Shown piece after piece: positions 5,081-61,660 of a stretch of DNA of 64,000 nucleotides. The notes under the pieces were generated by a model. That model saw only the letters and a program-made list of their open reading frames with translations. It searched no databases and was not told the origin of the DNA. The DNA comes from Asterias rubens (Eukaryota). Each line of letters starts with the position of its first letter. Position 1 is the first letter of the stretch. The stretch is from NCBI RefSeq assembly GCF_902459465.1, contig NC_047064.1, forward strand, positions 10,618,160-10,682,159. The letters are read 5' to 3'. The position numbers and the translations under genes were made by a program.

Positions 5081-5857
5081 ATGGCTGATGATGGGTTAGG
5101 GTGTATATCATGATCATATATATATGTAGGTAAAGACTGAATGGTTACGTTTGTAGAGTAATTTTTTAGCTGTTCTAGGCCCAATTTCATGGAGCTGCTT
5201 AACAGTAAGCTGCACACTAACAACGTATTGCAATGATGTTGCACTTTGCGCTGTGCTTAAACACTGTGCTTAGAAGAAAATTGGGGTTTGAAGAACCCTC
5301 TTCGCTTGCTTATAACCGCTTAAAGCAAAAAAACCTGGGTGAAACAAGGCCATGAATGAAAATTGTGATTGGGTAACATTGTCGGTCAGAGTCCAAGTGT
5401 GACTCACACAGTAAATGCTGATAGGGCTCCACTTGCATTATTATCCCACAACTTCGACGACCACTTGAGTTCAAATTTTCACAGGTTTGTTATATTTTGT
5501 GCATGTTGAGACGCACCAAGTGAGGAGACTGGTCTTTGACAATTACCAAAGGTGTCCAGTGTCTTGAAGAGACTTTTTTGTCGTTGTTTGGTGATACGAT
5601 TGAGACCTTGATGCGCATAAAAACATTAACAGATAATATATCAAACGCACATTTTAGAGCTTGAATATGAGGTGATTAGAAATAATTTACCAAAACTGAA
5701 ACTCCTAAAAAATTGTGATTTAAAATCTTAATAGATGTTAAATTTGCATCGGGGATAAAACCAAAATTAATATTCTTTATCCCCGATGCAAATTTAACAT
5801 CTATTATATCGTTGCGGTACCCGCTGCCAAAACATAGGATTCGAACTGCCTCTAGCT

Positions 5858-9187: not shown

Positions 9188-9343
<156 letters not shown>

Positions 9344-9345
9344 TA

Positions 9346-9728
9346 AAGACAGTGGACACTATTGGTAATTGTCAAAGACCAGTCTTCTCACTTGGTGTAT
9401 CTCAACATATGCATGACATACATAAAAAACCTGTGGAAATTTGAGATCAATTGGTCGTTGCCCGATAATAATGAAAGAAAAAAACACCCTTGTCACACGA
9501 AGTTGTGTGCTTTATGATGCTTGATTTCGAGACCTCAAACTCTAAATCTGAGGTCTTGAAATCAAATTCGCGGAAAATTACTTCTTTCTCGAAAACTACG
9601 TCACTTCAGAGGGTGCCGTTTCTCACTATGTTTTATACCATCAACCTCTCCCCATTACTCGTCACCAAGAAAGGTTTTATGCTTATAATTATTTTGAGTA
9701 ATTACCAATAGTGTCCACTGCCTTTAAA
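9346..9728 (+). mobile_element. MITE-C (~375 bp). TIR TTTAAAG(A/G)CAGTGGACACTATTGGTAATT, with an internal hairpin gatttcgagacctca...tgaggtctcgaaatc.
   Basis: This is a full-length copy with perfect ~29-bp TIRs at both ends and tttaaa flanks. It is the most abundant family in the window. I counted at least 18 full or partial copies, at 5445-5572, 7143-7250, 11900-12238, 12838-13015, 16506-16856, 19094-19300, 21847-22218, 27483-27830, 30391-30770, 37790-38082, 40500-40625, 43675-43830, 45843-46320, 56504-56884, 60851-61200, 61200-61660, 62163-62512 and 63690-63800. Confidence 0.85.
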
Positions 9729-26125: not shown

Positions 26126-26512
26126 ATTTGTTAAAGGGACACGTTGCCTTGGATATGTCGAGTTGGTCTATAAAAGCGTTTGTAACCGTTTGTTATAAAA
26201 TGCATATGGGTAGAAAGATGATGTAAAAGTAGAATACAATGATCCACACAAACATGCCTCTAAATTGCAAGGTTTTCCTTTTACCTCGTCAACTAACATG
26301 GTCAGCCATTTACGGGAGTCAAATTTTTGACTCCCATAAATGGCCAACCGTGTTAGTTCGCACAGTAAAAGGAAAACCACGTAATTTTGAGGCAAATGTG
26401 TGTGGATCATTGTATTCTACTTTTACATCATCTTTCTACCCAGATGCATTTTATAACAAATGGTTACAAATGCTTTCATCCGATCCAATAAAACGTGTTC
26501 CTTTAAGGTAAT
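26126..26512. mobile_element. Foldback element MITE-F: a near-perfect ~190-bp inverted-repeat palindrome.
   Basis: The arms run from aaagggacacgttgccttggatatgtcgagttggtctataaaagcgtttgtaaccgtttgttataaaatgcat... and mirror around the centre ggagtcaaatttttgactcc (~26330). Supplied ORFs 26168-26410 (-) and 26239-26511 (+) are mirror artefacts of this palindrome. Confidence 0.85.
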
Positions 26513-26825: not shown

Positions 26826-27190
26826 AGTGCTTAAAGGAACACGTTGCCTTGGATAGGGTCGAGTTGGTCTTTGAAAAGCATTTGTAAGTCTTTGAAAAGC
26901 GTTTGTAACCGTTTGTTATAAAATGCATATGGGTAGAAAGATGTTGTAAAAGTAGAATACAATGATCCACACAAACATGCCTCGAAATTGCACGGTTTTC
27001 CTTTTACCTCGCCGACTAACGCAGTCGGCCATTTATGGAAGTCAAATTTTGGCCGACCATGTTAGTTTGCACAGTAAAAGGAAAACCACGCAATTTTGAG
27101 GCAAACTGGTGTGGTTCATTGTATTACATCTTTCCAACCATATGCATTTTATATTCAATTCCCATCCACGGCAACGTGTTCCTTTAATAT
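26826..27190. mobile_element. Second complete MITE-F foldback copy.
   Basis: It has the same arms, and its centre ggaagtcaaattttggccgacc lies ~700 bp downstream of AGPS exon 17. Confidence 0.85.
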
Positions 27191-29907: not shown

Positions 29908-30390
29908 GTAAAAATATAAATCTTGTTGTTTTCTTATCAATATCAAGAGATAATTCGGTTTAATTGGTTATAAAATTCAAATTTACCTATCAAAAACCTG
30001 CATCACATTGCTTTCTCTCAAATGTGGCGCTTAGGCTCTGTTTTAAGTAGGGACCTTAAATTTGCTTTGGCTAGGTCTTGTTCACTGTGTCTGTTATTCT
30101 GCAAGTAATGAGGTGTAGTGGTTCGAATTAGATTTGATGGTTTAACAACTTATAACAGTTTACTCTGAAGACGGTTGGAGCATTTGTAATGTACTGATTG
30201 AAATATCAAGTTCTCAAAATCACCAGGGCCCGATTTCGTGGCTCTGCTTAATACCGCCCAATGCTGTGCTTACAATCACCATTCTTTGCGTTCTGTGAAA
30301 CCGCCGAATTTTTACACTAGCTGTGTCAAAGAGAAGATTGCAGAGTAACATGTTTTACACACTTGTACAAGGCCAGACGGCCACTTTAAA

Positions 30391-30770
30391 GGCAGTGGAC
30401 ACTATTGGTAATTACTCAAAATAATTATCAGCTTAAAACCTCACTTGGTAACGAGTAATGGGGAGAGGTTGATAGTATAAAACATTGTGAGAAACGGCTC
30501 CCTCTGAAGTGACGTACAGTTTTGAGAAAGAAGTAATTTTCCACGAATTTGATTTTGAGACCTCAAGTTTAGAACTCTTGAAATCAACCATCTAAACGCA
30601 CACAAGTTCGTATGACAAGGTTGTTTTTCTTTCATTGTTATCTCGCAAGTACGACGACCAATTGATCTCAAATTTTCACAGGTTTGTTACTTCATGCATA
30701 TGTTGAGATACACCAAGTGAGAACACTGGTCTTTGACAATTACCAATAGTGTCCACTGTCTTTAAGGTGA
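30391..30770 (-). mobile_element. MITE-C copy.
   Basis: Reverse orientation. Supplied ORFs 30441-30671 and 30676-30933 (-) lie inside it, so they are spurious. Confidence 0.8.
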
Positions 30771-46401: not shown

Positions 46402-46500
46402 TCAACTTGTCGTGCCTTTACTCCTTTCCAATTTAGCCAGGTATTCTGGATAACCATTACATGCATCTGTCATGGATTGCATGAAACCAGGAACTCCAGT
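46402..46500 (-). CDS. PCTP: PCTP-like terminal coding exon. Encodes TGVPGFMQSMTDACNGYPEYLAKLERSKGTTS*.
   Basis: Matches human NGVPNFLKDMARACQNYLKKT*. Acceptor gtttcctag| and minus-strand stop TGA (plus-strand tca at 46402-46404). Confidence 0.88.
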   Translation of the reverse strand, partial: TGVPGFMQSMTDACNGYPEYLAKLERSKGTTS

Positions 46501-47041
46501 CTAGGAAACGGTACAAAAAAATATTGATATTTTAAGATTTCATATTTATGTATAACAAACAAAGAATCTTATCACTCTAAAAACTTTGGGCCAGAATTGT
46601 CCCCAGGGGTCTGAACCCAAATCTGTGCCAAACTGACCTAAACCTGTGTCAAACTGACTTATAACCCGAAAAAGAACTTTAGAGTAGTTGCTTAGTAAAG
46701 TGTTATTTTACGTCACTATACAAATCACTATTGTTACACCGACAATTGTTCTTTACAATGAATTTTAATGCTTTGTGAAATGGAGCCCTGCTTTTTCTTA
46801 GAGTAGGAAAAGGCCCAATTTTGAAAATGACAAAACAAAAAATAATAAAGGAGAACAAACCACTGGTGCTTCATAAGCTTTATCCAAATATATTTACCAG
46901 AAACAAACAGGTTGAAATAGAAATTGCAGTATATGCAAATTTTAGCTGATTAATTGTACATTTTCCAACACAAAAGGAACATGAATTGATGAAATTCTTA
47001 TTCCTGAAAACTATTTGATCGCAGTAAAAAAAATGACTTAC

Positions 47042-47109
47042 TTTGGCAGCCCAGTTGACCAGCCATGTTGGTATCATTCCTTTAGGGTTGTCATAGTAAT
47101 GCATGAACG
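47042..47109 (-). CDS. PCTP: PCTP-like exon 5. Encodes AFMHYYDNPKGMIPTWLVNWAAK.
   Basis: Matches human VFMYYFDNPGGQIPSWLINWAAK, the START-domain C-terminal helix region. Acceptor tatctgtag| and donor AAA|gtaagt. Confidence 0.9.
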
Positions 47110-47345
47110 CTACAGATATCAAAGACAATATTGTTAATACAAAGAATTTCAAAAACTTGCAATCGCCCCCGAATGTTGAAATTCCAGTCACATGTTCATT
47201 TCTTCAGGTGAAGTTTACACTAGAAAGCATGTGTTAAATTTAAAAAAACAGAACACGTTTAATTGTTCTGTTTCTTAAAAACTGTTTCTTTTTTTACTTG
47301 GCCTAATGTCATATGCAAAGGGTCTGATCTAACCTATTATATTAC

Positions 47346-47514
47346 CTTTTGAACCATCACCACTTGCTTTGATTGCCATACTTTGCTTGAAATCATCCAC
47401 CCTGATGACACCAGCCACAGGCGGTTTGGAGGCAAAGGGAACACTGCGACCCAGGATCACCCATACGTGCTCATCATTAATTTCAAACTCTCTTGACTCT
47501 CGTATAAACGCGTA
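47346..47514 (-). CDS. PCTP: PCTP-like exon 4. Encodes YAFIRESREFEINDEHVWVILGRSVPFASKPPVAGVIRVDDFKQSMAIKASGDGSK.
   Basis: Matches human YVYLRQRRDLDMEGRKIHVILARSTSMPQLGERSGVIRVKQYKQSLAIESDGKKGSK. Acceptor ttttgcggacag| and donor AAG|gtaata. Confidence 0.88.
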
Positions 47515-48341
47515 CTGTCCGCAAAAGTGTTAAGAAATCCTCAAAATAAAATGTTGAATAAATTTTAAAATAACAAATTGAGATTGTCAAAATGTCAAAG
47601 ATGGACCTAAAGACCAGAAGTTGACCAAAATTATTGGACGAACCCCATTCTGCTCCATTTTCCAATACTGGGAGATAAAGTATGATAAATGAGTCTTTCT
47701 CAATTGTTTATCATTACCTGTGTGTGAATGCCTATAGAACAAAATTTATATATGTGTAGATACATATTTGGTACATGTTTAATTTGATGAAAATGATTCA
47801 AGTTCAGTTTATTATACAAAATATTGAAATTGTTATTTTTCAATATTACAGCAGTCGGCCTGTGAAAAACATCAAACTTGGTTGTTTCGTCTTGGTGATA
47901 ACAATGGAAGCACGTTTAATTTAGCCAGAGACTTGGAGCACAGCAATCAATCTTAATGACTCTATCATTATAAATATTTATAACAAAAATATTCGTCTGA
48001 AGGATGGTTCTGGTAGGAGCTTTTATAGTTAGAAACCTATCTGAATAAACTGATTTTTTTACAGGAATTACCAAACGTGTCTTTATAGACTCATTATTTT
48101 GAATATAAAAAACAATGAGGCCTTAGTTTAGGCACATAATTTCTAATGATATTTATCATGACATCATTCCGCATAAGTTGTCAATTAGAAACAAATAAAT
48201 TAGCTGCTGCACACTGCTCAACCAGCACAAACAAATTGTGATATAATTGCAAAAATTGGTAATGGCTGACATCTTTTTACATAACCACACTACTTAGAAG
48301 TAAAATGTTTCAGAGTGATTCTTCAATAATAAAAAAGATAC

Positions 48342-48421
48342 ATCTCTTGATGACATTGGGAATGGGTAGTTGACTCTCCAGTAAACGCCCTCTCTGTCAC
48401 CATCTTTAACTTTATACAACT
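48342..48421 (-). CDS. PCTP: PCTP-like exon 3. Encodes (K)LYKVKDGDREGVYWRVNYPFPMSSRD.
   Basis: Matches human ELYEQECNGETVVYWEVKYPFPMSNRD. The acceptor is a 16-T tract followed by gcag|, and the donor is GAT|gtatct. Supplied ORF 48294-48512 (-) overlaps this exon but runs on into flanking intron. Confidence 0.88.
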
Positions 48422-49984
48422 CTGCAAAAAAAAAAAAAAAAATATTATTTGAGTTTTCAATTAATAAAAACCGGGTACGGGCCTCTAAACTAATAGGTAT
48501 TGAAAAAAACATGAAATAAAGGTTGTTCTCTCAAAACCATTTTCAGACCTTGAACTTCCCTCTTGAAGGAGCACATCCATTTTTTTTCTGGTCAGGGGCA
48601 ACTCAGGAGATTGATTGACAGCTCTTTTGTTGCCAGGAAAAATTCACCTTAAACCCATCGACCTTAACAGAAATACTTGAAGCAGTAGTTTTCTTATCCC
48701 GATAAATCAAATGGCACATCAACAGCTCCATACCCACTTTTAATTTGAGGAAAACAAATGATATATATTTGAACTAATGTCCCCCCCCCAAAAAAAAAAT
48801 AATAAATAATAAATAAATTAATTATTTAATAAAAAAATAAATTTATAATTAAATAAAGCATAAATAAAAAAATTAAAATTTTAAATATACAAAATAAAAC
48901 AAAAATTATGAGAGGACCTAAATTTCGTTCCTATAAAAAATAATTAGTTGTTTTCCCAAAAAATAATACTGTTTAGCTCCTTTAAATTAGTCATTCATTT
49001 TCTCAAACAATTATTGTGTTCCTATGAAAAAAAATTCCCAGCAAGTTTCACTCCGAATTCATTGTTTCATGCTTTTAGACAGCCGAGCAGATTGACTCAG
49101 ACGCACAATTTGGGGTCTGGTTCTATCGGAAATGTTCACAGTCCTCATATGTTAAGAGCGTCAAGTCAGTAAAGGCAGATGGAAAAGAGCGTCGGATTAA
49201 TGTTGCGTAATCCAGTAAGTAGGAAAAAACGGTGTTTGACGCTCCACACACCGTGCAGTATGCCTACACAGTACTCCACATCAGTTGCAACTTAGCAAGG
49301 GCGGGCTGGAAAAGAGTTGGCCTAATGACAATTATGAAAGTCTCTGGTAAGTGAAATATTTGTCAAAGTGATTCCACATTTTATAGTTGTTCATTTAGAT
49401 GAGTAAGCTTCAAAATTTCCATCATTTTCCAACAGTATGCCGTAAATTCTGAAAAGATTGCTAAACTAAAAGTAAGTAAATAAGTCTTCAGAAATCCTCA
49501 TTTGAGCGGCTAAAAAGTGAGCACTTAATTCAAAATTGTTCTACTCCATTTTCCAGCATTTTTTAACCGTAGCCAAAACATGAATTAAATGGTTTGAACA
49601 ACTTCAAGTCAGTGGTTTTTCTCGTACTTCATTATGAAAGTGTAGCCCAAACAACATACCGCAGGTTAGACCTAAAGTGGATGTCTATGGTAACCAAGTT
49701 CCTGAGAATTGTAAGGTTATAGGCGGATCTGAGAACACTTTTATATAAACAATAATAAACACTCACTTCATACAACAGGACATATGGCTTCCCTGTACTA
49801 CATTATTGGTTGGGTGGGATGGGGTCACATTTCTTTTATTCATTGAGAAAGAAGAATCATTCATCATGTTTTTGTGAATGTGGTTTTACAACGCATAAAC
49901 TTGCGTTTTGGGTTGACCTGGCAGGGTCAAAATTCCCTTTATTTACAATTTTTACGGTTAAAGGAACACGGATCAGACGAGTCG

Positions 49985-50800
49985 GTCTACAAAAAGCGTT
50001 TGTAATTGATTTGTTCCTAGGTCTTTAATAGTAAATTGATTTGTTCCTAGGTCCTAGTGAATTGATTTGTTCCTAGTGAATTGCATGTTTCCTAGGTCCT
50101 AGTGAATTGAATTATTTCTACGTCTTAGTGGGTTGATTTGTTCATAGGTCTTAGTGGGTTGATTTGTTCCTAGGTCTTAGTGAATTGAGTTGTGCCTAGA
50201 GATTGAATTTCTCCTAGGTCTCAGTGAATTGATTTGTTCATAGGTCTTAGTTGGTTGATTTGTTCCTAGGTCTCAGTGAATTGAGTTGTTCCTAGAGATT
50301 GAACTGTTCCTAGGTCCTAGTGAATTTAATTGTTCCTAGTGAATCGAGTTGCGCCTAGGTCTCAGGGAATTGAATTGTTTCTAGTTCTCGGTGAATCGAT
50401 TTGTTCCTAGGTTCTAGTGAATTGAATTATTCCTAGGTCCTAGTGAATTGATTTGTTCCTAGTGAATTTAATTATTCCTAGGTCCTAGTGAATTAATTTG
50501 TTCCTAGTGAATTGATTTGTTCCTATACAGTATGTCTTAGTGAACTGAATTTTTTCTAGGTCCTAGTAGATTGAAATGTTCCTAGGTACAACAAAAACTG
50601 ATTTGTTCATATTGATTTTTTCCTTAGTAAAATGATTTGTTCCTATCAAGGTCATTGTGAACTGATTCTCCCATGTTCCAGTGAATTGATTAAATCATAA
50701 AGTCCAGGTAAACTGATTTGTTCCTAAGTCACCGTGATTTGATTTGATTTGATCATAGCTATCAGTAAATTGATTTGGTACATAATCTTTTATGGGTCTC
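49985..50800. repeat. Satellite array of a ~26-28-bp unit (~28 copies) in PCTP intron 2.
   Basis: Imperfect tandem units of GTTCCTAGGTC(C/T)TAGTGAATTGA(T/A)TTG. Confidence 0.85.
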
Positions 50801-52854
50801 GAAGACTCGGTTTGCTCCTTATAAAAACAGACCCTGGTCTATGGTAAAAGGAAGCTGTACAACGCTTTAAGGAGGTACGCTTAATATAAGAAAAATTGCA
50901 TTCCTGTGTCACTCCCAAAAAGTATTAGAAAACAACGCAAGTATTTTTTTTTCTTGAAAGACTTTTTTCTTGTTTCAAGGATACAATGCAGTGTAAAATG
51001 AACCGGTTTTGTGTTCAGTAACTGCAAATTCAAATGTTTCCAAGTGATAAACTAAGGGAAACTGACTGGGTTACATGTATATGATGTTGGGTTGAACAAA
51101 GAAGAAATTACTAATGTTCAGTCTTTTCTGTTCAGTTCTAATCTTGTTTTCATGGGGTGATATTGCTAAACTCTTATCATTAGCTGGAGAGCTTTAATCC
51201 GATTATTGAATTCTTTGGACAGATAAAGGTAAAGCCAATTATCTCACATGAGTTATAAAGCTAAAGAAAGGCCACACAGAAAGGCAAAGTTATGATTTAA
51301 GTTTAAAAGTAACTCATGTCGCTTTTTAGTTTTCTTCATATCCTCTTCTAATATCAAATTCTGAACTTTGTTGGATAACTTTTGTGTTTATTTATTGTAA
51401 CAAAAGCTCATAACAAAGGCAGGGCAGTTTGGCATTTTGTTGAAAATCATTTGATCATTTAAGTATTTTATCTGTGTTATTGATCATTACATGTATGTCA
51501 TTGTATAAATATGTATATTAGGCATTAGGTGCAGTTAAAAGTCTATTCAGTTTGGGGCAATAGGTATTATGTGTAACCCCAGATCTTAAAAGTTGAGATA
51601 TAATCATTTAAAACTTGTAAGAAACCATCCAGCAGGACCTGTCTTTGCTCTGATATGCACTATTTCTGTGAAATCAGTTTTTGTGATAATATGCACTATT
51701 TCTGTGAAGTGCATCTTTTGTCTTAATTTAAACAATAAAACTATGCTTTGAATGTTGGAAAGAAACAAATTGCAAAACCTCAGCCAAATCATCTGATTGT
51801 TGCTCATAGATGTACGTGCATGCACGTCACAAGCACATAATATTTTAGGCTTTTTCAAAGGTGTGTACACAAACATGGGAGTGCACACAAATGCAGCTCA
51901 CAGTACATGCTCTACTCAGTACACGTGTACACGTACATGTAGATCTATGGGTTCAACACGTACTGTACAACTACAATACTACTGGTATTACTATAATTGT
52001 TATTATTATGATTCTTAAATGACATAAATGGTAATTAAAAACTGCTGAGTAAGACTACAGTTTACAATGTTAATGAAATACTAAGGGAAAAAAACACTGA
52101 CAATACAATAATGGAGAGGGGGGCTTGTGCCAGTCACCCCCCCCCAGCCCTGATCCCCAATTTGGACCCAGACCTTTGAGATTCAACACTACCTATGATA
52201 AGCTTTCATGTGGTATTAAAACTGTTTTTCTATTTACACACTGACAATGTAATTTGAGATTAAAAAATTTGAGGACGACCAAAAGTAAAAAGGTACATTT
52301 AATAAGCTTTTTGACAATACTAATTAAACTCTGCGTTTAATTGTTGAAAACTATTTTCTATACTACGCAAAACAAAAATCCAGTTGTTCGTCCCCACTCC
52401 CCTCCATCATCCTTTGTTTGAGGGCGCCGCCCCCTTTTTTTCTTTTTCTTTTTTGAACAAATTTTCGGTGTACATTATTTCTCATTTAACTAACTAATCT
52501 TTGAAGAACTTGTAAACTACATAAGGTAGGTGGTGACTTTAAACTGAAGAATTTGTGGCCAGTTTGAAATAAAATGCTTGGTGACCACCTTAAGAAATAC
52601 AAAATAAAAAGACCCTCATCCCTTTTGGAAAAACCTGGACGATCACTGGTATACTTCTTGGCCTTCATACACACTAATGTAATTTGATGTTACCTCCACC
52701 TCAAACTTGCTTTCAAGAATTAAGAAATGGCATAACAAGAGCGCTGAAAAGGAGCACACGGGTCATTGCGTAGATTGTAGGAGTGAGGTTAAGAAAAATT
52801 AGCCAAGAGAGCCCCTCTATACAAAATGAAGTAATCATATTGTGCCTAATTTGT

Positions 52855-54420
52855 TTAAAGCCATTGGACACTTTCGGTAAACAGTGTTGTCCAAAGGCCC
52901 ACTCTTCATGTATCACAACTTGTATAGGGTACGTTCAGACGTGGGGTTAAACTAGTCCTTAATCCGAGCACCGCGGGTGTCCAAAAGATAAACATGACTT
53001 AGTCCAAAATTGGCTTGCGTTCACACAGTGAGTTTATTCTGGTCAAGCGGACTAAACTAGCCCACGATGTTGATTATTGGGTCATGCATCGGCGAACCTT
53101 ACCATTGCTGGTTCCGGTTTGTTACATTGTCCATGCGTTTTCCACAGGGTTTCGATCCGCTATCGTTTCTACGAACCTCATGGTCATCATGTATTCCATC
53201 ATTAAAGACGGCAAAATCACTTCATATCCTTGCTTGGCCCCAGCACAAACGCAATTCTATTGTGCCCGCTGAAGTTTCCGTTCCGCACTGCCCTCGATGA
53301 ACGAAACATTTACACGTTGTTGTTGAAAGCTTCAAATTATTTTCGAGTGTGAACTTTTGTAAATATATCACAACTTGGTCATTAAGAAGTCGTAGCCTAC
53401 ACACATTCTCATGTTACGTTAAAAATTGTTTTTCAATTCAACATTAGTCTGCTACTCGTATAACTGTTACGTAAAGTTGTTGAGGGCAGGAACCAGATAC
53501 AACCTAGTTTTCGAACCCAAACTTTGGTCTTAATTGTCGATCCCGTGTGTAGCTTAGCTGTGATTAGATGCCACTTTCTTCAAAGCAAAACCCGTTCGTT
53601 ATCATAAAGTAGCGTTGCACACAGAAGAAGTGAATTTAAAAACTAAATAGTGCTACTAAAAATGAGAACTTGTTTTCGTGCGACGTCCATTTCAAACATT
53701 TTCGGCGAAGGGGAATACCGGGGCCCCAACACTTAATGGTAACATAAAGGGAAGGCAGCGGAGAGACGCAAGGAGATATTATATAGCTCCATGGATTCAT
53801 GAAGACACCACCCAATACTCGCTGCCGATCCATCCATACACGTGGAATGACGTCACCTTTGTTGCCGCGGTCATTTGGGCTAAAATAGACCGGAAGTAGC
53901 AGGTCAGTTGCGTTCCAACGATGGTTTACTGGGCCTCGCAGCGGGGGGTTGGTCGTAAAACCTGGGCTAAGTTTATTGTCTAGTCCACCAATTTTTTTGG
54001 TTTAGTTTAGCCCAGCTCAGTGGGTCAAATTAACCCTCGCGGACCAGAATATTGCGTTCACACGCAGGGTTAGTTTAGCACTTTTGGATTAAGGACTAGT
54101 TTAACCCCACGTCTGAACGTACCCATATAAAATAACAAACCTGTGAAAATTTAGGCTCATTCGGTCATCGGAGTCGGGAGAAAATAACGGGAAAACCCAA
54201 CCTTGTTTCCGCACGTTTCGCCGTGTCATGACATGTGTTTAAAATAAATCCTTAATTCTCGATAACGAGAATTGATAATTGTTTTAGTGTTTTCTCAAAA
54301 AGTAAAGCATTTCATTGAATAATATTTCAAGAGAAGTCTTTCACCATTACCTTCTGTAAACCCTGTAAGTTATTTGTAAATCTGTGAACTTTAATTTTTT
54401 TCTTTCTAGTCAGAAAGTGT
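52855..54420 (+). mobile_element. MITE-D copy interrupted by the nested insertion above.
   Basis: The 5' part at 52855-52920 and the 3' part at 54121-54420 are collinear with the intact copies at 4760-5080 and 44906-45280. Confidence 0.8.
52921..54120. mobile_element. Non-autonomous TIR DNA transposon (~1.2 kb) nested inside a MITE-D copy.
   Basis: The ends are ~45-50-bp terminal inverted repeats: gggtacgttcagacgtggggttaaactagtccttaatcc... at 52921 and its reverse complement ending at 54120. Long subterminal inverted repeats share the core gcgttcacac. The host MITE continues on both sides, and compared with uninterrupted copies the join carries 3 extra bases (tat/ata), implying a 3-bp TSD. 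Confidence 0.75.
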
Positions 54421-54524
54421 ATAATGGCCTTTTTTTTGCCATTGAGTTGAGGGCCTTCATGTGAGGCCAGGTTGGGGTCTTTTTAAAGTTACCCTCTGTA
54501 AGATGTTTTGGGGGCTAGAAAAAT

Positions 54525-54860
54525 ACAAAGTGATTGGAGCGGGACTAGAACCTGCGACCTCCGGATTATTGTGCCCGCGCTTTACTAACTGAGCTATTCG
54601 GTGCTTATGTTGGCGGTGTCCCTTTTTTGTCAAATTCTTTGTTCAGGGGTGCCACTCAGATGCAATACAACCTGTAACTGCTGTAAAGCCACAGATCACA
54701 CTCCCAAGTTGATTTCAAATATTAAGTACAAAAAACACAAGGGACACCAACTTGGTAAATTCTTAAGTTAATTTTTGGTTGGAAAAAGAAAAATTTACTA
54801 GAGCGGGACTTGTGCCGACGCTTTAACAACTGAGCTTTTAAGTCCTATAAATGTTCGTGT
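54525..54860 (-). pseudogene. Two tRNA-like remnants within a ~270-bp tandemly duplicated unit.
   Basis: The first (54531-54610 on the minus strand) reads gcaccgaatagctcagttagtaaagcgcgggcacaataatccggaggtcgcaggttctagtcccgctcc. Its A-box TAGCTCAGTTAGT and B-box GGTTCTAGTCC are intact, but the acceptor stem does not pair. A degenerate second copy lies at 54790-54855. Confidence 0.45.
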
Positions 54861-55047
54861 TAGAGCCTTTTGCTGGTCTCCCCATTTTGTCAATGTGTTT
54901 GTTCGGGGGCGACAGTCAATTTTACTTGTGGTTTATATAACTTTATACCTTAAAATATAATGACAACCTATTTCGACAATCTCTTGAAAAATAAGTTGAA
55001 AAAGTTCAGCAGTCTGCTAGGGGGATAAAGATGGGGAATCATACTTA

Positions 55048-55165
55048 CTGTTGACATAACTGTCCCATGTTTTCCGGTACTCCAGATCAACATACACCTT
55101 GGCGCAAGTCTCTGGTCCAACACCACTTAATGTCCCAAATACCTTGTATTCATACAATCCTGAGT
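55048..55165 (-). CDS. PCTP: PCTP-like exon 2. Encodes DSGLYEYKVFGTLSGVGPETCAKVYVDLEYRKTWDSYVN(K).
   Basis: Matches human GLYEYKVFGVLEDCSPTLLADIYMDSDYRKQWDQYVKE. Acceptor ttttgag| and donor ACA|gtaagt, both on the minus strand. Confidence 0.88.
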
Positions 55166-55744
55166 CCTCAAAACCAATGAAAAAATAATTTACTGTTAAT
55201 AAAATGTATCTTTAAAAAAAAATAACAATTTTGGTTAGATTTAGTAAGTTAGAAAAGTATTGTTCATGACACAGTAATTATTGCATGTAGCATTTTTATA
55301 TACTAACGCCAATCATAGCTATCACCCCAGCATGACAGGAATTATTATGGACAAATATAGTTCTTCTGCATCCCACACCAAGGTCAAAGTAACTTTTGTT
55401 AAATTTTCTAAGCAATAGAAATTCTTTGTTGAAAATGTTGGAGGAGTTACATGATATTTTTAAATATGAAACTTTTGTAATTTGACGCTCGATGACGTCA
55501 AAACTTGTAATGGTTACATCTACTACTTCTACTCATTACATAGTTTGAAGTAGGTTTGCTAAGTATTTTGGTCAATCACTGTCAATGAAGACACTCGATG
55601 TATAGCAAGTAGAAAATGGAACTTGGTCTAAAGGGACTGTAACTTGGTCTAAACATGCTAAATGACGAAAAGACCACACCAAACACACACGATTGTAATT
55701 CAGGACTCTCCACAATGACAATAGTAATATCAGTGAATGCTTAC

Positions 55745-56290
55745 GTCTTCATAGAACCTTCTGTACCATGCAGCCATGATACACGTACTTCACAAAGCTA
55801 ACAAAGGCAATTGCCTCCATGCCCCCTGGTCATTGCCTTGGTGCCCTTGAAACGTTACAGTTGAATTTTTACAATTTCCTCGTAGGGTGCCCTTTACCAA
55901 GAAGAAAATGCCAAGGTGCCATTGCCCTTTCAAAACGGAAGCATACTGTACAGGCCTGCATGGATGTTGCAGGTCTCGAACAGCACCCACAGCAATTTCC
56001 GTGGTGCCCTTTGATTGCTGTGGTAATATTAGTGACAGCCTGTACGGAAGTCTCCATCAGAACCTTCCACAGTTGTATCATGCAGCCATGGACAAGCCTG
56101 ACACTTCACATTTAAGGCAACAAAGGCGATTGCCTCCATGCCCTTACCTTGGTGCCTCTGAAAAGTTCCAGGACAAGTTTACATTTTCACCATACATGTA
56201 CGTGAAGAGTGTCCCTTACCAGAGGAAAATTATTGTGCCCCTTCAAAAGCAAAAAGGCCCGGTGTTGACTGCTATGTTGCGCTACGGGTA
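55745..56290. repeat. Tandem duplication of a ~330-bp unit containing ~40-bp GGTGCCC... sub-repeats.
   Basis: The segment 55745-56075 repeats at 56075-56290. The recurring motifs ggtgcccttgaaa, ggtgccctttaccaagaag and gtgccccttcaaaag explain supplied ORFs 55819-56115 and 55887-56330. Confidence 0.7.
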
Positions 56291-56503
56291 CAATGTATGG
56301 GTGCACTGTAATTTGAATAGACTTACATGATTCGTAACATCACGCATGCTTCCCACCCTGTGTATCAAGTGCATCAAGTTGCAGAGCTAGAGTTTGAAAT
56401 AAACAACGCACCACAGCACATGGCAGATTCAACATGGCACTTATTAACCATAACGGGTTGATTGAGTTGAGCCATGGAAGCGCTACCTGTCCAGCCTAAT
56501 AAG

Positions 56504-56884
56504 AGTTGAAGGCAGTGGACACTATTGGTAATTACTCAAAATAACTATTAGCATAAAACCTTTATTGATTACGAGTAATCGGGAGAGGTTGATGGTATAA
56601 AACATTGTGAGAAACGGCTCCCTCAGTAGTTTTTGAGAAAGAAGCAATTTTCCACGAATTTGATTTTGAGACCTCAAGTTTAGAATTTGAGGTCTCGAAA
56701 TCAAGCAGTTGAAAGCACACAACTTCGTGTGACAAGGGTGGTTCTTCTTTCATTGTTATCTCGCGAGTTCGATGACCGATTAACCTCAAATTTTCACAGG
56801 TTTGTTATTTTATGCATATGTTGAGATACACCAACTGTGAAGGCTAGTCTTTGACAAGTACCAATATTGTCCACTGCCTTTAAA
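56504..56884 (-). mobile_element. MITE-C copy.
   Basis: Lies in PCTP intron 1. Confidence 0.8.
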
Positions 56885-57539
56885 CTTTACAACTCCTCCC
56901 CTGTCCCCACTCCCAAAGTATGTCTTGATGAGTGGCCTGTTCTTGTGATCCAGTTCTAGTTTGATCCAGATTCTTGTTTGATACAGATCTCTTCTCCATC
57001 CATGTGTATGGACAGTATTCAAGTTGCGACATCAGCGACTACGCTAACAAAATCAAGACAAGGCCTACACCCAACTTTCCTCCATGCCCCAATCAAGTGT
57101 TCACAATATACTGCAGTCTGTCTTTTTAGGACAATAATGATAAATAGGCCTACAAATCCTATCGATGAACATTTGACTTGACCTTGAACTTACAACGTAT
57201 AGATCTATCACAATATGGACAATCAACTTCAGCCGGCTAGATAATAAATCAGGCACTAACATCATGACAATTATGAGTTGATCAAGCATAGACTTGTGGA
57301 CAAGTCTTTAAATGTCTGTCGCAGTAAGCGTTCCCCGCGATTCCTCGGTATTCTCGCGCCCAATATTAACGACTTATCCACAAGTCTAATCATGCATTGC
57401 AATGCATTTTTAACAAATACATTATTTGTAAAGACAGAATTTATCACCACAGTTTAAGTTCCTACATGTTGTTTAATTTCACTAAAACTAAGGTTTAACA
57501 ATAATGTTAACGACACCTAGCCCACCTTGTTGAGCTGTT

Positions 57540-57685
57540 AATGGCTCCGCTTTTAACATTGGTCTCGTCACTGTCACCATTACATTGTAATGGTGACAGT
57601 GATGAGACCGATGTTGTAATGGTGACAGTGATGAGACCGATGTTGTAATGGTGACAGTGATGAGACCGATGTTAAAAGCGGAGCC
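57540..57685. repeat. 29-bp tandem repeat (GTAATGGTGACAGTGATGAGACCGATGTT)x3 with an inverted-repeat flank.
   Basis: ggctccgcttttaacattggtctcgtcactgtcaccattac is the inverted complement of the unit. It lies immediately left of the MITE-F arm. Confidence 0.8.
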
Positions 57686-57689
57686 ATTA

Positions 57690-58790
57690 AAGGAACACGT
57701 TGCCTTGAATCGCCTTGGATCGGACGAGTTGGTCTATAAAAAGCGTTTGAAACCGTTTGTTATGAAATGCATGGTTAGAAAGATATTTTAAAAGTATAAT
57801 GATCCACACAAGTACCACTCAAAATTGCACGGTTTTCTTTTTACGTCGCGAACTAAGCACAACTACTCCATTGGTGACAGTATAATCCAGACAGTAAGTG
57901 AAGAAAGAGATCTTGGGGTAATCATCCATCAGTCACTAAATGCAAGTACCCACTGTGCGAAGGCAGTCAAAAGCGCATTCAGAGCCCTGGGGCTAATCAA
58001 CAGAACCATTACGAACAAAGACAAAACAACAATCATCAGACTGTACAAAGAACTGGTTAGACCACACCTAGATTACTGTGTTCAGGCGTGGAGGCCTCAT
58101 CTTCAAAGGGACATTGACCAAATAGAAAGAGTGCAAAAGAGAGCGTTGCGAATGATTGGAGGTCTATCTCACCTAGACTACGTTCACAGACTCAGGGAAG
58201 TGAAATTGACCACCCTGGAGTGCAGGAGGCTGCGAGGAGATCTTATCGAGACCTTTAAGATACTCAGGGGCCTTGAGGGCTTGAACCCGGAACACTTCTT
58301 TGATTTGTCAACCGTGCAGCACAGGGGTCACCAACTTAAACTGTACAAATCAAGATCCAACCTCAACCTCAGGAAGTTCTGGTTTACCCAGAGAGTGGTC
58401 AACTACTGGAACATTCTCCCTCGAAAAGCAATTGAAGCTTCAAGTGTGAACATTTTCAAGGGACATGTGGATAAATTCCTAAAGAACGTCGGGGGGCTCT
58501 ACATAAGCTTATCTAAGCTGTCTGCCCCAGTAACCAGAACCACCGTCTCCTCCCCAGTTGTGTGATGGCGTCGGTGGGTTCAAGTAAGTTCAAGTAAGAC
58601 CGTGTTAGTCGACGAGGTAAAAAGAAAACCACGCAATTTCGAGGCATATTTTTGTGTGGATCATTGTATTCTACTTTTACAACATCTTTCTAACCATATG
58701 CATTTTATAACAAACGGTTACAAAACGCTTTTCAAAGACCAACTCGACCGATCCAAGGCAACGTGTTCCTTTAACAGCTCAACACAGAAG
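57690..58790. mobile_element. Composite element in which MITE-F arms flank the CR1 ORF2 3' fragment.
   Basis: The left arm at 57690-57840 and the right arm at 58600-58790 are inverted copies of each other and of the 26126-26512 arms. The 759 bp between them (57841-58599) is the CR1 RT tail. Confidence 0.8.
57841..58599 (+). mobile_element. CR1/L2-like LINE, 3' end of ORF2 (RT C-terminal domain) plus a short 3' tail with (ttcaagtaag)x2.
   Basis: Supplied ORF 57825-58565 translates to ...LDYCVQAWRPHLQRDIDQIERVQKRALRMI...TLECRRLRGDLIETFKIL...HRGHQLKLYKSR...RKFWFTQRVVNYWNILP...FKGHVDKFL. This is the classic CR1-clade ORF2 C-terminus (RRLRGDLI, FFTQRVV..WN.LP). Confidence 0.85.
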
Positions 58791-58894
58791 GTTTAGCACA
58801 TTTCATGGATTTGATACGGCAAATGGTTTCCATGATATGATAACATGAAGAAACGCTTCCGGTTGTTTGAGTTTTAATACGTTAGTGAATTTAC

Positions 58895-59014
58895 CTCTTG
58901 ATATTTGCGGTAGATCTGTACACCTGAAGACTCAACAAAGAACTCATAGTCCGAAATTCTTGGATTGTCCAGCTCAGAGCAAGCTTCTTCAAATTCTTCA
59001 TCCGTGAAGTCCAT
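58895..59014 (-). CDS. PCTP: PCTP/StarD2-like START-domain protein, first coding exon. Encodes MDFTDEEFEEACSELDNPRISDYEFFVESSGVQIYRKYQE.
   Basis: Minus-strand ATG at 59014. Matches human PCTP ...SEEQFWEACAELQQP...WQLLVETSGISIYRLLDKKTG. Donor GAG|gtaaat on the minus strand (plus-strand atttac at 58889-58894). Confidence 0.85.
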
Positions 59015-60850: not shown

Positions 60851-61660
60851 ATTAAAGGCAGTGGACACTATTGGTAATTACTCAACATAATTATTAGCAT
60901 AAAACCTTACTTGGTAACGAGTAATGGGGAGAGATTGATGGTATAAAACATTGTGAGAAACGGCTCCCTCTGAAGTGACATAGTTTTCGAGAATGGAGTA
61001 ATTTTCCACGAATTTGTTTTCGAGACCATTGCGGTCTCGAAATCAACCATCTAAACGCACACAACTTCGTGTAACAGGGGTGTTTTTTCTTTCATTAATA
61101 TCTCGCAACTTCGATGACCGATTGAGCTCAAATTTTCACAGGTTTGTTATGTTATGCATATGTTGAGATACACCAATAATGTCCAGTGTCTTTAAGCAAT
61201 GATAAAAATGTGATTGTCATCAAATTTCACGAGAGATTGACAACAATTTTCTCAGCTCTATGTTGTGGGAAACGGCCCCTCTGAAGCAACGTAGTTTTTC
61301 GAGTAAGATGTAATTTTCCACGAATTTCATTTCGAGACCTCAGATTATAATTTTGAGGGCTCGAAATCAAGCATCTAAAAGCACACAACTTCGTGTGACA
61401 ATTTCTTTTTCATTGTGCCTATTATCTCGCAACTTCGATAACCAATTGAGCTCAAATTTTCACAGGTTTGTTATTTTATGTCGAGATACACCCAAGGAGC
61501 AGACTGGTCTTTGACAATTACCAATAGTGTCCAGTGTATTTAAAGAAGACACACAATGTTTTATACTTTCAACCTCTCCCCCATCATTACTCGTTATCAA
61601 ACAAGGTTTTATGCTAATAATTATTTTGAGTAAGTACCAATAGTGTCCACTGCCTTCAAG
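60851..61660 (-). mobile_element. Two adjacent MITE-C copies plus a partial third.
   Basis: The segments 60851-61200, 61200-61553 and 61553-61660 together form a cluster upstream of PCTP. Confidence 0.75.

Follow-up and report, generated by a model that had tools for sequence, protein, structure and literature searches.

Results

Layout of the locus

The structure reported here lies in a window of 64,000 nucleotides of Asterias rubens DNA (by "the window" we mean this whole stretch), in intron 1 of a gene similar to that for the phosphatidylcholine transfer protein (PCTP-like). According to tblastn, the gene has six exons on the minus strand; the exon interiors are identical to A. rubens XP_033624987.1 and differ at several residues from the A. 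amurensis protein. At a distance of some 110 bp from the splice donor of exon 1, there is a nest of transposable elements: a small foldback MITE (MITE2) adjoins an element of another foldback family (MITE-F), which in turn encloses the 3' end of a CR1-like LINE, antisense to the gene. The order within this composite is TTAA, left arm, CR1-like ORF2 3' end with its tail, right arm, TTAA. The composite is 1,080 bp long, and both TIRs and the flanking TTAAs are intact (Table 1).

Table 1. Position of the nested elements, their flanks and the MITE-F reference copies in the window
Feature	Position	Strand	Basis and remarks
MITE-F copy A	26135..26502		TTAA at 26131-26134 and 26503-26506; uninterrupted centre
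MITE-F copy B	26835..27183		TTAA at 26831-26834 and 27184-27187; internal deletions including part of the centre; no CR1
Whole nest (MITE2 + MITE-F + CR1)	57518..58782		1,265 bp versus 38 unalignable bp in A. amurensis
Outer flank TGTTGAGCTG	57528..57537		reverse complement of 58775-58784
MITE2, small foldback MITE	57538..57686		TTAA at 57538-57541; 47-nt inverted termini; abuts MITE-F via the common TTAA
Left TTAA	57687..57690		read from the sequence; doubles as the right TTAA of MITE2
MITE-F left arm	57691..57856	+	alignment; TIR begins AGGAACACGTTGCC; 10-bp local duplication at 57702-57722 (TRF)
CR1-like ORF2 C-terminus, 5'-truncated	57855..58565	+	open frame from AAG CAC (K H) to TGA at 58563-58565
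CR1 3' UTR (12 nt) and terminal tandem tail	58566..58598	+	(GTTCAAGTAA)x2.1 at 58578-58598 (TRF)
MITE-F right arm	58599..58770	+	alignment; begins (G)ACCGTGTTAG, ends ...GGCAACGTGTTCCT
Right TTAA of MITE-F	58771..58774		read from the sequence and alignment
Outer flank CAGCTCAACA	58775..58784		partner of 57528-57537
Exon 1 of the PCTP-like gene	58894..59014	-	tblastn with the PCTP sequence

The first-pass annotation of this DNA had described inverted arms around the C-terminus of a LINE ORF2 with a short tandem tail. This description is confirmed: the left and right arms of the composite match with 78.9% identity over 166 bp (BLAST, E = 2e-35). The proposed kinship of the arms with the elements near 26130-26506 and 26831-27187 holds as well, the right arm being 90.5% identical to copy A over 179 bp (BLAST). 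The measurements, in turn, had to be revised. The arms had been given as ~190 bp long with the left one ending at 57840; they are ~166 and ~172 bp long, and the left one ends at 57856. The insert, described as "exactly 759 bp", is 742-744 bp (57855/57857-58598), where the range reflects the ambiguity of the junctions: at the 5' junction, 57855-57856 (AA) is a microhomology common to the MITE arm and CR1 (2 nt), and at the 3' junction, G58598 can be assigned either to the tail or to the MITE arm (1 nt). The left junction string is CGAACTAAGCACAACTACTCCATTGG, the right one GTTCAAGTAAGACCGTGTTAGTCGAC. Nor can the reference elements be called "perfect" foldbacks; the arms of copy A are 86.5% identical over 310 bp, and copy B has internal deletions.

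The MITE-F family

We compared some 105 kb from Asterias and, in addition, four metagenome contigs, all of them short. Apart from the composite, two MITE-F copies (A and B) were found within the window and five more in 20 kb of Asterias amurensis DNA (L002); TTAA is present on both sides in all eight cases, the composite included. The alignment of the seven copies and the two arms gives a length of 357-405 bp and the termini AGGRACACGTTGCC / GGCAACGTGTYCCT. The seven copies have a continuous palindromic centre (part of it is missing in copy B) and contain no CR1 sequence; no ORF of at least 130 aa was found in copies A or B. In the 105 kb from Asterias, MITE-F accounts for roughly 3% of the sequence. 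A terminal fragment of 66 bp at about 49957-50015 is orthologous in both Asterias species; therefore, the family is older than the rubens/amurensis split.

A single long hairpin is predicted for an intact MITE-F (dG = -145.8 kcal/mol, z = -26). In the prediction, its tip consists of a helix of 26 bp, closed by a 4-nt loop and bounded by an 8+8-nt internal loop, and the region of this helix is the 56-nt near-perfect central palindrome of the intact subfamily members.

The subfamily that best matches the arms of the composite is formed by the A. amurensis copies L2a/L2b. The left arm is 86.9% identical to the left arm of L002:1529-1694 and 75% identical to the right arm of the same copy; for the right arm, the identity amounts to 91.1% with the right arm of L002:1745-1921 and to 87% in the crossed comparison. 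Taken together, 166 + 49 + 172 bp rebuild an element of normal length (~390 bp). Judging by these alignments, both arms are one MITE of the TTAA-flanked foldback family. The side-for-side matches and the normal rebuilt length rule out two unrelated half-MITEs placed around CR1 by chance.

The two arms of the L2a/L2b subfamily are themselves only about 83% alike; accordingly, the 79% identity between the arms of the composite is inherited from the parent subfamily and is not a sign of age. We considered and rejected a reading in which the arm divergence would make the MITE far older than the CR1: the MITE insertion is lineage-specific, and the asymmetry comes from the subfamily.

TTAA is the target type of piggyBac-type transposases, and MITE-F can be provisionally referred to the piggyBac type by its TTAA target only. 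The canonical piggyBac TIR begins with CCC/GGG, whereas that of MITE-F begins with AGG... The inverted halves folding into one long hairpin resemble Drosophila Foldback (FB). However, the arms of FB are long and built of tandem subrepeats, while those of MITE-F consist of unique sequence, are about 190 bp long and are flanked by TTAA; TRF reports only two 10-bp duplications in them (in the left arm). The arms thus being unlike those of FB, the term "foldback" is used here descriptively only.

The CR1-like insert

The insert contains a single open frame with 234 CR1-homologous codons matching the C-termini of non-LTR retrotransposon ORF2. Its protein is 99% identical to the best database protein (P0001) and matches more distant relatives with E = 1e-85 or better. 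The fragment lies downstream of the RT and itself has no significant Pfam match; RVT_1 is found in longer members of the same cluster (at least 90%) and family, P0122 and the ORF of L004, with E = 4e-26 and 6e-27.

Four other CR1 copies were available for comparison, one from A. amurensis (L002) and three from ENA marine metagenomes (L003, L004 and L005). They are 97-99% identical to the copy in the window, stand at unrelated loci with no MITE arms, and either reach further 5' into RVT_1 or are truncated elsewhere. Upstream of the position of the junction, they have the native CR1 sequence ...AACATCAAGCACAACTAC; therefore, the copy in the window is truncated inside ORF2. The tail (GTTCAAGTAA)n is present in five copies at different loci and has 2.1-3.1 units (2.6-3.1 units in the other copies with a complete 3' end). 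In the MFE fold, ACCACCG and CGGUGGGU are predicted to form a stem directly before the tail, where CR1 elements have a stem-loop proposed as the recognition site of the RT; the copies are too alike for covariation. The copy in the window has only five private substitutions in about 720 bp, and its frame is intact, which fits a young insertion.

BLAST revealed no second CR1 copy within the window. When the 1.96 kb CR1 of L003 was compared with the window, only the insert and some unrelated repeats of the flank were matched, and no MITE copy. None of the CR1 copies examined is full-length or shows an endonuclease domain. A tRNA-like stretch beside the CR1 in L003 was also considered and dropped, as it received no ARAGORN call.

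The 3' end of the insert coincides exactly with the LINE terminus, and its 5' start falls at an arbitrary point of ORF2; this argues for reverse transcription from the tail and not for capture at the DNA level. These features of its sequence identify the insert as an ordinary product of retrotransposition in an active CR1-like LINE family. Severe 5' truncation as well as a 3' hairpin and microsatellite have been described for CR1 (PMC4316615). Similarly, our insert is severely 5'-truncated and ends with a short tandem motif in place of poly(A), and the longer copies encode an RT; the predicted stem-loop may be a further point in common. The difference from amniote CR1 is the tail unit, which is a 10-mer (GTTCAAGTAA) and not an octamer. 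The designation "CR1-like" follows from the ORF2 homology, RVT_1 and the tandem 3' tail; the placement in the CR1 clade, as opposed to L2, Rex1 or Jockey, is putative.

The missing centre of the MITE

Of the sequence around the MITE centre, the composite retains ...GCGAACTAA (left side) and GACCGTGTTAG... (right side). The stretch between them, CACGGTCGGCCATTTATGGGGGTCAAAA followed by TTTTGACTCCCATAAATGGCC, is missing; its length of ~49 bp is deduced from the paralogous MITE-F copies, not from the pre-insertion sequence. Relative to the symmetry axis, it begins at -28 and ends at +21; the 56-nt palindrome has thus lost 28 nt of its left half and 21 nt of its right half, and the left breakpoint is at the base of the predicted tip helix. 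Hence, the CR1 copy replaces the hairpin tip of MITE-F; the deletion and the insertion would have been one event. An insertion of CR1 precisely at the palindrome centre, one of the two explanations offered in the first-pass annotation, is supported in that a 5'-truncated CR1 is found in the centre, but ~49 bp have been replaced and it is no point insertion.

The first-pass annotation had named target site duplications (TSDs) at the junctions as one of the points to check; a clear TSD, as left by a simple independent LINE insertion, was to count against its proposal. No direct repeat is present at 57856/58599, and it is the paralogues that indicate the loss of target there. The CR1 copies in L002 and L005, the two with both flanks visible, have no obvious TSD either; consequently, the missing TSD in the composite says little.

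Insertion site and age

In the orthologous A. amurensis locus (L007), the alignment runs with 94% identity up to position 58782 of the window and then with 91% from 57517. The empty site is not clean, since the 38 bp there are poorly alignable. As the A. amurensis intron is free of the nest, the latter arose after the species split; a traceless loss in A. amurensis is less parsimonious. The comparison indicates that the whole nest is lineage-specific and young. The site being occupied in one species and empty in the other, MITE-F has demonstrably been mobile. For the CR1 step taken separately, the empty-site comparison is limited by the fact that the A. amurensis ortholog is free of the MITE too. 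We also tried a 631-bp contig from a more distant species (L006, obtained by a search with the exon-1 peptide) as an empty site and rejected it because the intron is too diverged.

If MITE2 and MITE-F are taken out, what is left is a 24-bp palindrome with TTAA at its centre, and no larger host foldback was found around it. MITE2 contains a 29-bp tandem repeat (x3.1) at 57585-57673 (TRF); there is no other MITE2 copy in the 105 kb of Asterias sequence.

A metagenome scaffold with the same left junction

P0001 is encoded by L001, a 1,355-bp ENA metagenome scaffold (SOLA22-1, ERZ23498415), and begins with the same 12 arm-encoded residues as the junction ORF of the window. Over 135 bp, L001 is 100% identical to the left arm, and its left junction is the same as in the window. 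Since this junction is also present in an independent sequence, it is not an assembly artefact of the window.

After a tail of 3.1 units, L001 continues into unrelated sequence in place of the right arm. Its CR1 differs from that in the window at 12 positions and equals L003 at 12/12; across CR1, L001 is 99.9% identical to L003. At seven of the 12 sites, the variant of the window recurs in other copies (in L004 and L005 at 7/7, in L002 at 3/7). The seven sites, being common to other copies, are subfamily markers, and the CR1 of L001 belongs to another subfamily. We presume that L001 beyond the left junction is most likely a chimeric assembly; this is the simpler explanation because short-read assembly has to cross a 740-bp repeat with many copies at 97-99% identity.

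No second complete composite was found among the sequences examined. Exact look-ups of the products of the 246-aa junction ORF, the 64-aa right-arm ORF and the 44-aa antisense right-junction ORF found none of them on record; therefore, the right junction (from the tail to the right arm) is seen in the window only. Scans of JGI metagenomes gave 0 matches for the left-junction 26-mer and the MITE-F terminus, and the collection evidently contains no asteriid DNA.

Discussion

Proposed history

Starting from what is seen directly (how the locus is built, to which families its parts belong, that the centre is missing and that A. amurensis has no such nest), we believe with good confidence that the locus is a three-level transposon nest, in which a single CR1 retrotransposition into the hairpin tip of MITE-F was accompanied by a target deletion. 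The events could have proceeded as follows. A non-coding foldback MITE of ~390 bp would have integrated at a TTAA beside or inside another small MITE. The minus strand would then have been nicked in the palindrome tip, at the present 58598/58599, and the CR1 RNA reverse-transcribed from its 3' microsatellite tail; the synthesis may have stopped, or the product been truncated, ~740 nt upstream. The plus strand would have been broken 49 nt upstream, the 5' end joined at 57856 via the 2-nt microhomology, and the intervening target lost. Two breaks 49 bp apart in the original MITE account both for the loss of the central palindrome and for the lack of a TSD.

Target-primed reverse transcription (TPRT) would be the most economical account of these features. 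A nick of the second strand upstream, which results in a target site deletion, is an established outcome of TPRT for non-LTR elements (PMC2881922). We further infer, though only tentatively, that the CR1 step took place at the present locus and not in a parent copy that moved later.

Alternative explanations

The composite could have formed at another locus and then have been moved into the present TTAA by a TTAA-specific transposase. Its termini (AGGAACACGTTGCC... / ...GGCAACGTGTTCCT) and flanking TTAAs are intact, MITE-F entered this site only after A. amurensis had split off, which speaks for recent mobility of the family, and the same left junction occurs in a second sequence context, L001. 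Against this, no second complete composite has been seen, and L001 lacks the right arm and carries a CR1 of another subfamily. We consider this history unlikely, though worth keeping in mind; it would alter only the place of the CR1 step, not the nature of the structure.

Next, the break could have come first: the extruded hairpin or cruciform tip would be cut by a structure-specific nuclease and the break patched with CR1 cDNA in an endonuclease-independent manner. Endonuclease-independent L1 insertions are free of TSDs and associated with target deletions (PMC1920257). Here as well, there is no TSD, the ~49 bp lost coincide with the 26-bp tip helix, with the left breakpoint at its base, and a microhomology of 1-2 nt is present at both junctions. 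However, the LINE 3' tail is kept and is only slightly shorter than elsewhere (2.1 versus 2.6-3.1 units), in keeping with ordinary priming there; clear TSDs are missing from other copies of the family as well, so this feature is not diagnostic, and we deal with a single case. On balance, such an order of events seems improbable to us.

It might also be that the MITE centre was deleted before CR1 arrived, as copy B demonstrates a central deletion without CR1; this would, however, need two events at the same nucleotide.

Another conceivable scenario concerns L001: a composite transcript from the left arm to the CR1 tail, retrotransposed in trans by the CR1 RT, would leave a retrocopy with a MITE head and a LINE tail. 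The scaffold is built as would be expected in this case: a stretch of the left arm (at least 135 bp, 100% identity) leads over the shared junction into the CR1 fragment, which has 3.1 tail units against 2.1 in the window, and an unrelated flank follows. Such a retrocopy should carry the variants of the composite, but the CR1 of L001 is 99.9% identical to the L003 type and differs from the window at the seven shared-variant sites; a chimeric short-read path across the 740-bp repeat is simpler. Thus, we find a retrocopy very unlikely.

It is tempting to go further and propose that the hairpin tip of the abundant MITE-F is a preferred entry of CR1 (through structure-directed nicking or the repair of tip breaks), that the composite is dual-mobile, and that L001 is a genuine retrocopy. 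If this were true, the composite, with transposase-competent ends and a 3' tail recognised by the RT, could move both by DNA transposition and by retrotransposition. A rough estimate of chance does not encourage this proposal, to which we give very little credence: the central palindrome makes up about 14% of the element, which together with 3% coverage means that a random CR1 insertion hits a MITE-F centre in ~0.4% of cases. For a LINE family of many copies, several such hits are expected genome-wide by chance, and one case picked after the fact cannot establish targeting.

Finally, the first-pass suggestion that the foldback family arose from CR1 3' sequence or captured it at the DNA level has only the physical juxtaposition in one copy in its favour and can be practically dismissed: the seven MITE-F copies in two species are free of CR1; BLAST with the 1.96 kb CR1 hits 57855-58598 and never the MITE copies; CR1 copies with the same tail stand at loci without MITE arms; the exact LINE terminus is not expected from DNA-level capture; and the composite is lineage-specific, whereas the MITE family predates the species split.

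Relation to known systems

The structure is an ordinary nested transposon insertion of a well-known kind and no new type of element. The lack of a TSD, the loss of a few tens of bp and the microhomology at the junctions are shared with target-deletion and endonuclease-independent insertions of human L1 (PMC2881922, PMC1920257). The distinctions from the L1 cases are that the element is CR1-like and that the deleted target is the palindromic tip of a transposon; unlike many endonuclease-independent events, the insert keeps its 3' tail.

MITE-F can be compared with piggyBac-related TTAA MITEs such as the coral CMITEs, which are likewise small, non-coding, bounded by TIRs and flanked by TTAA on both sides (PMC2872659). 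Two MITEs abutting via a common TTAA and the formation of a new composite by nesting have parallels among the coral CMITEs as well (PMC2872659). In contrast to these, the inverted repeat of MITE-F spans the whole element, which makes it a true foldback.

Significance

The composite can be viewed as a by-product of two active transposon families; nothing points to a function. The nesting after the divergence of the two Asterias species implies that both a TTAA foldback MITE and a CR1-like LINE have been recently active in the lineage. A wider point can be put as a hypothesis, for which one case is insufficient: the palindrome tips of foldback MITEs may be fragile or may be preferred entry sites for LINEs. 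By itself, the locus is of little consequence, unless LINE entries prove to be in excess at MITE hairpin tips. The exact junction sequences can be used as presence/absence markers.

Insertion site and neighbouring elements

The nest formed by the small MITE2, the foldback MITE-F and the CR1-like LINE fragment lies in the window together with a phosphatidylcholine-transfer-protein-like gene (Table), whose six exons are identical in their interiors to Asterias rubens XP_033624987.1; by this match the window belongs to A. rubens or to a species very close to it.

Table. Host gene and small TTAA-flanked elements (window positions)
Feature	Position	Strand	Remark
Phosphatidylcholine-transfer-protein-like (START domain) gene	46405-59014	minus	six exons
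MITE2, second small TTAA-flanked foldback MITE	57538-57686		directly abuts MITE-F; one TTAA is common to both
Second MITE family, example locus	9343-9727
Second MITE family, example locus	30386-30766
Second MITE family, example locus	56506-56883
Second MITE family, example locus	60852-61176

MITE2 ends in inverted termini of 47 nt, and at 57585-57673 it contains a 29-bp unit repeated without mismatch in 3.1 copies; a search of 105 kb of Asterias sequence found no further copies of MITE2. The 10 bp immediately outside the MITE2/MITE-F pair, at 57528-57537 and 58775-58784, are exact reverse complements of each other (TGTTGAGCTG and CAGCTCAACA), so that the site before insertion is reconstructed as a 24-bp palindrome with TTAA at its centre. 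Either the target itself was palindromic, or MITE-F entered a TTAA within the outer inverted repeat of MITE2.

The counterpart of the nest in Asterias amurensis (L007, the locus orthologous to the intron of this gene) is not a clean “empty site”: positions 5234-5270 stand there against 57518-58782 of the window. The 38 bp at this site that do not align to the window flanks read ATGACACTCACACCACTAGGTCGTCATGAGGTGGTTTA on the plus strand of the window, i.e., as the reverse complement of L007; part of them looks like a local duplication and part like a small inversion.

Age of MITE-F

A solo terminal fragment of MITE-F (66 bp with TTAA) at about 49957-50015 of the window is orthologous to L007 12052-12118, and the family is therefore older than the divergence of the two species. 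A pair of MITE-F copies in another A. amurensis piece (L002 1528-1921 and 2389-2780), 861 bp apart, shows 99.5% identity and the same flanks, which suggests that the MITE-bearing segment was recently duplicated in tandem at this locus rather than that the MITE transposed twice.

CR1 copies in metagenome contigs

The metagenome contig L001 has the same left junction between MITE-F and CR1, and its CR1 portion belongs to a subfamily other than that of the window copy. After the CR1 tail it continues, at 878-1355, with unrelated sequence and then, at its end, with a copy of the second MITE family. Chimeric assembly across a repeat is the probable origin of this contig.

In the marine metagenome contig L005, a CR1 copy that is independent of the window copy and lies at a different locus is truncated at its 5' end (position 178) only 6 nt upstream of the truncation of the window copy (57855); the former starts with AACATCAAGCAC... 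and the latter with AAGCAC.... The near match may reflect a truncation hot spot or coincidence.

Second MITE family

This TTAA-flanked family of about 380 bp, with termini AGGCAGTGGACACTATTGGTAATTAC..., is very abundant (20 loci in the 64-kb window) and is also present in the A. amurensis loci.
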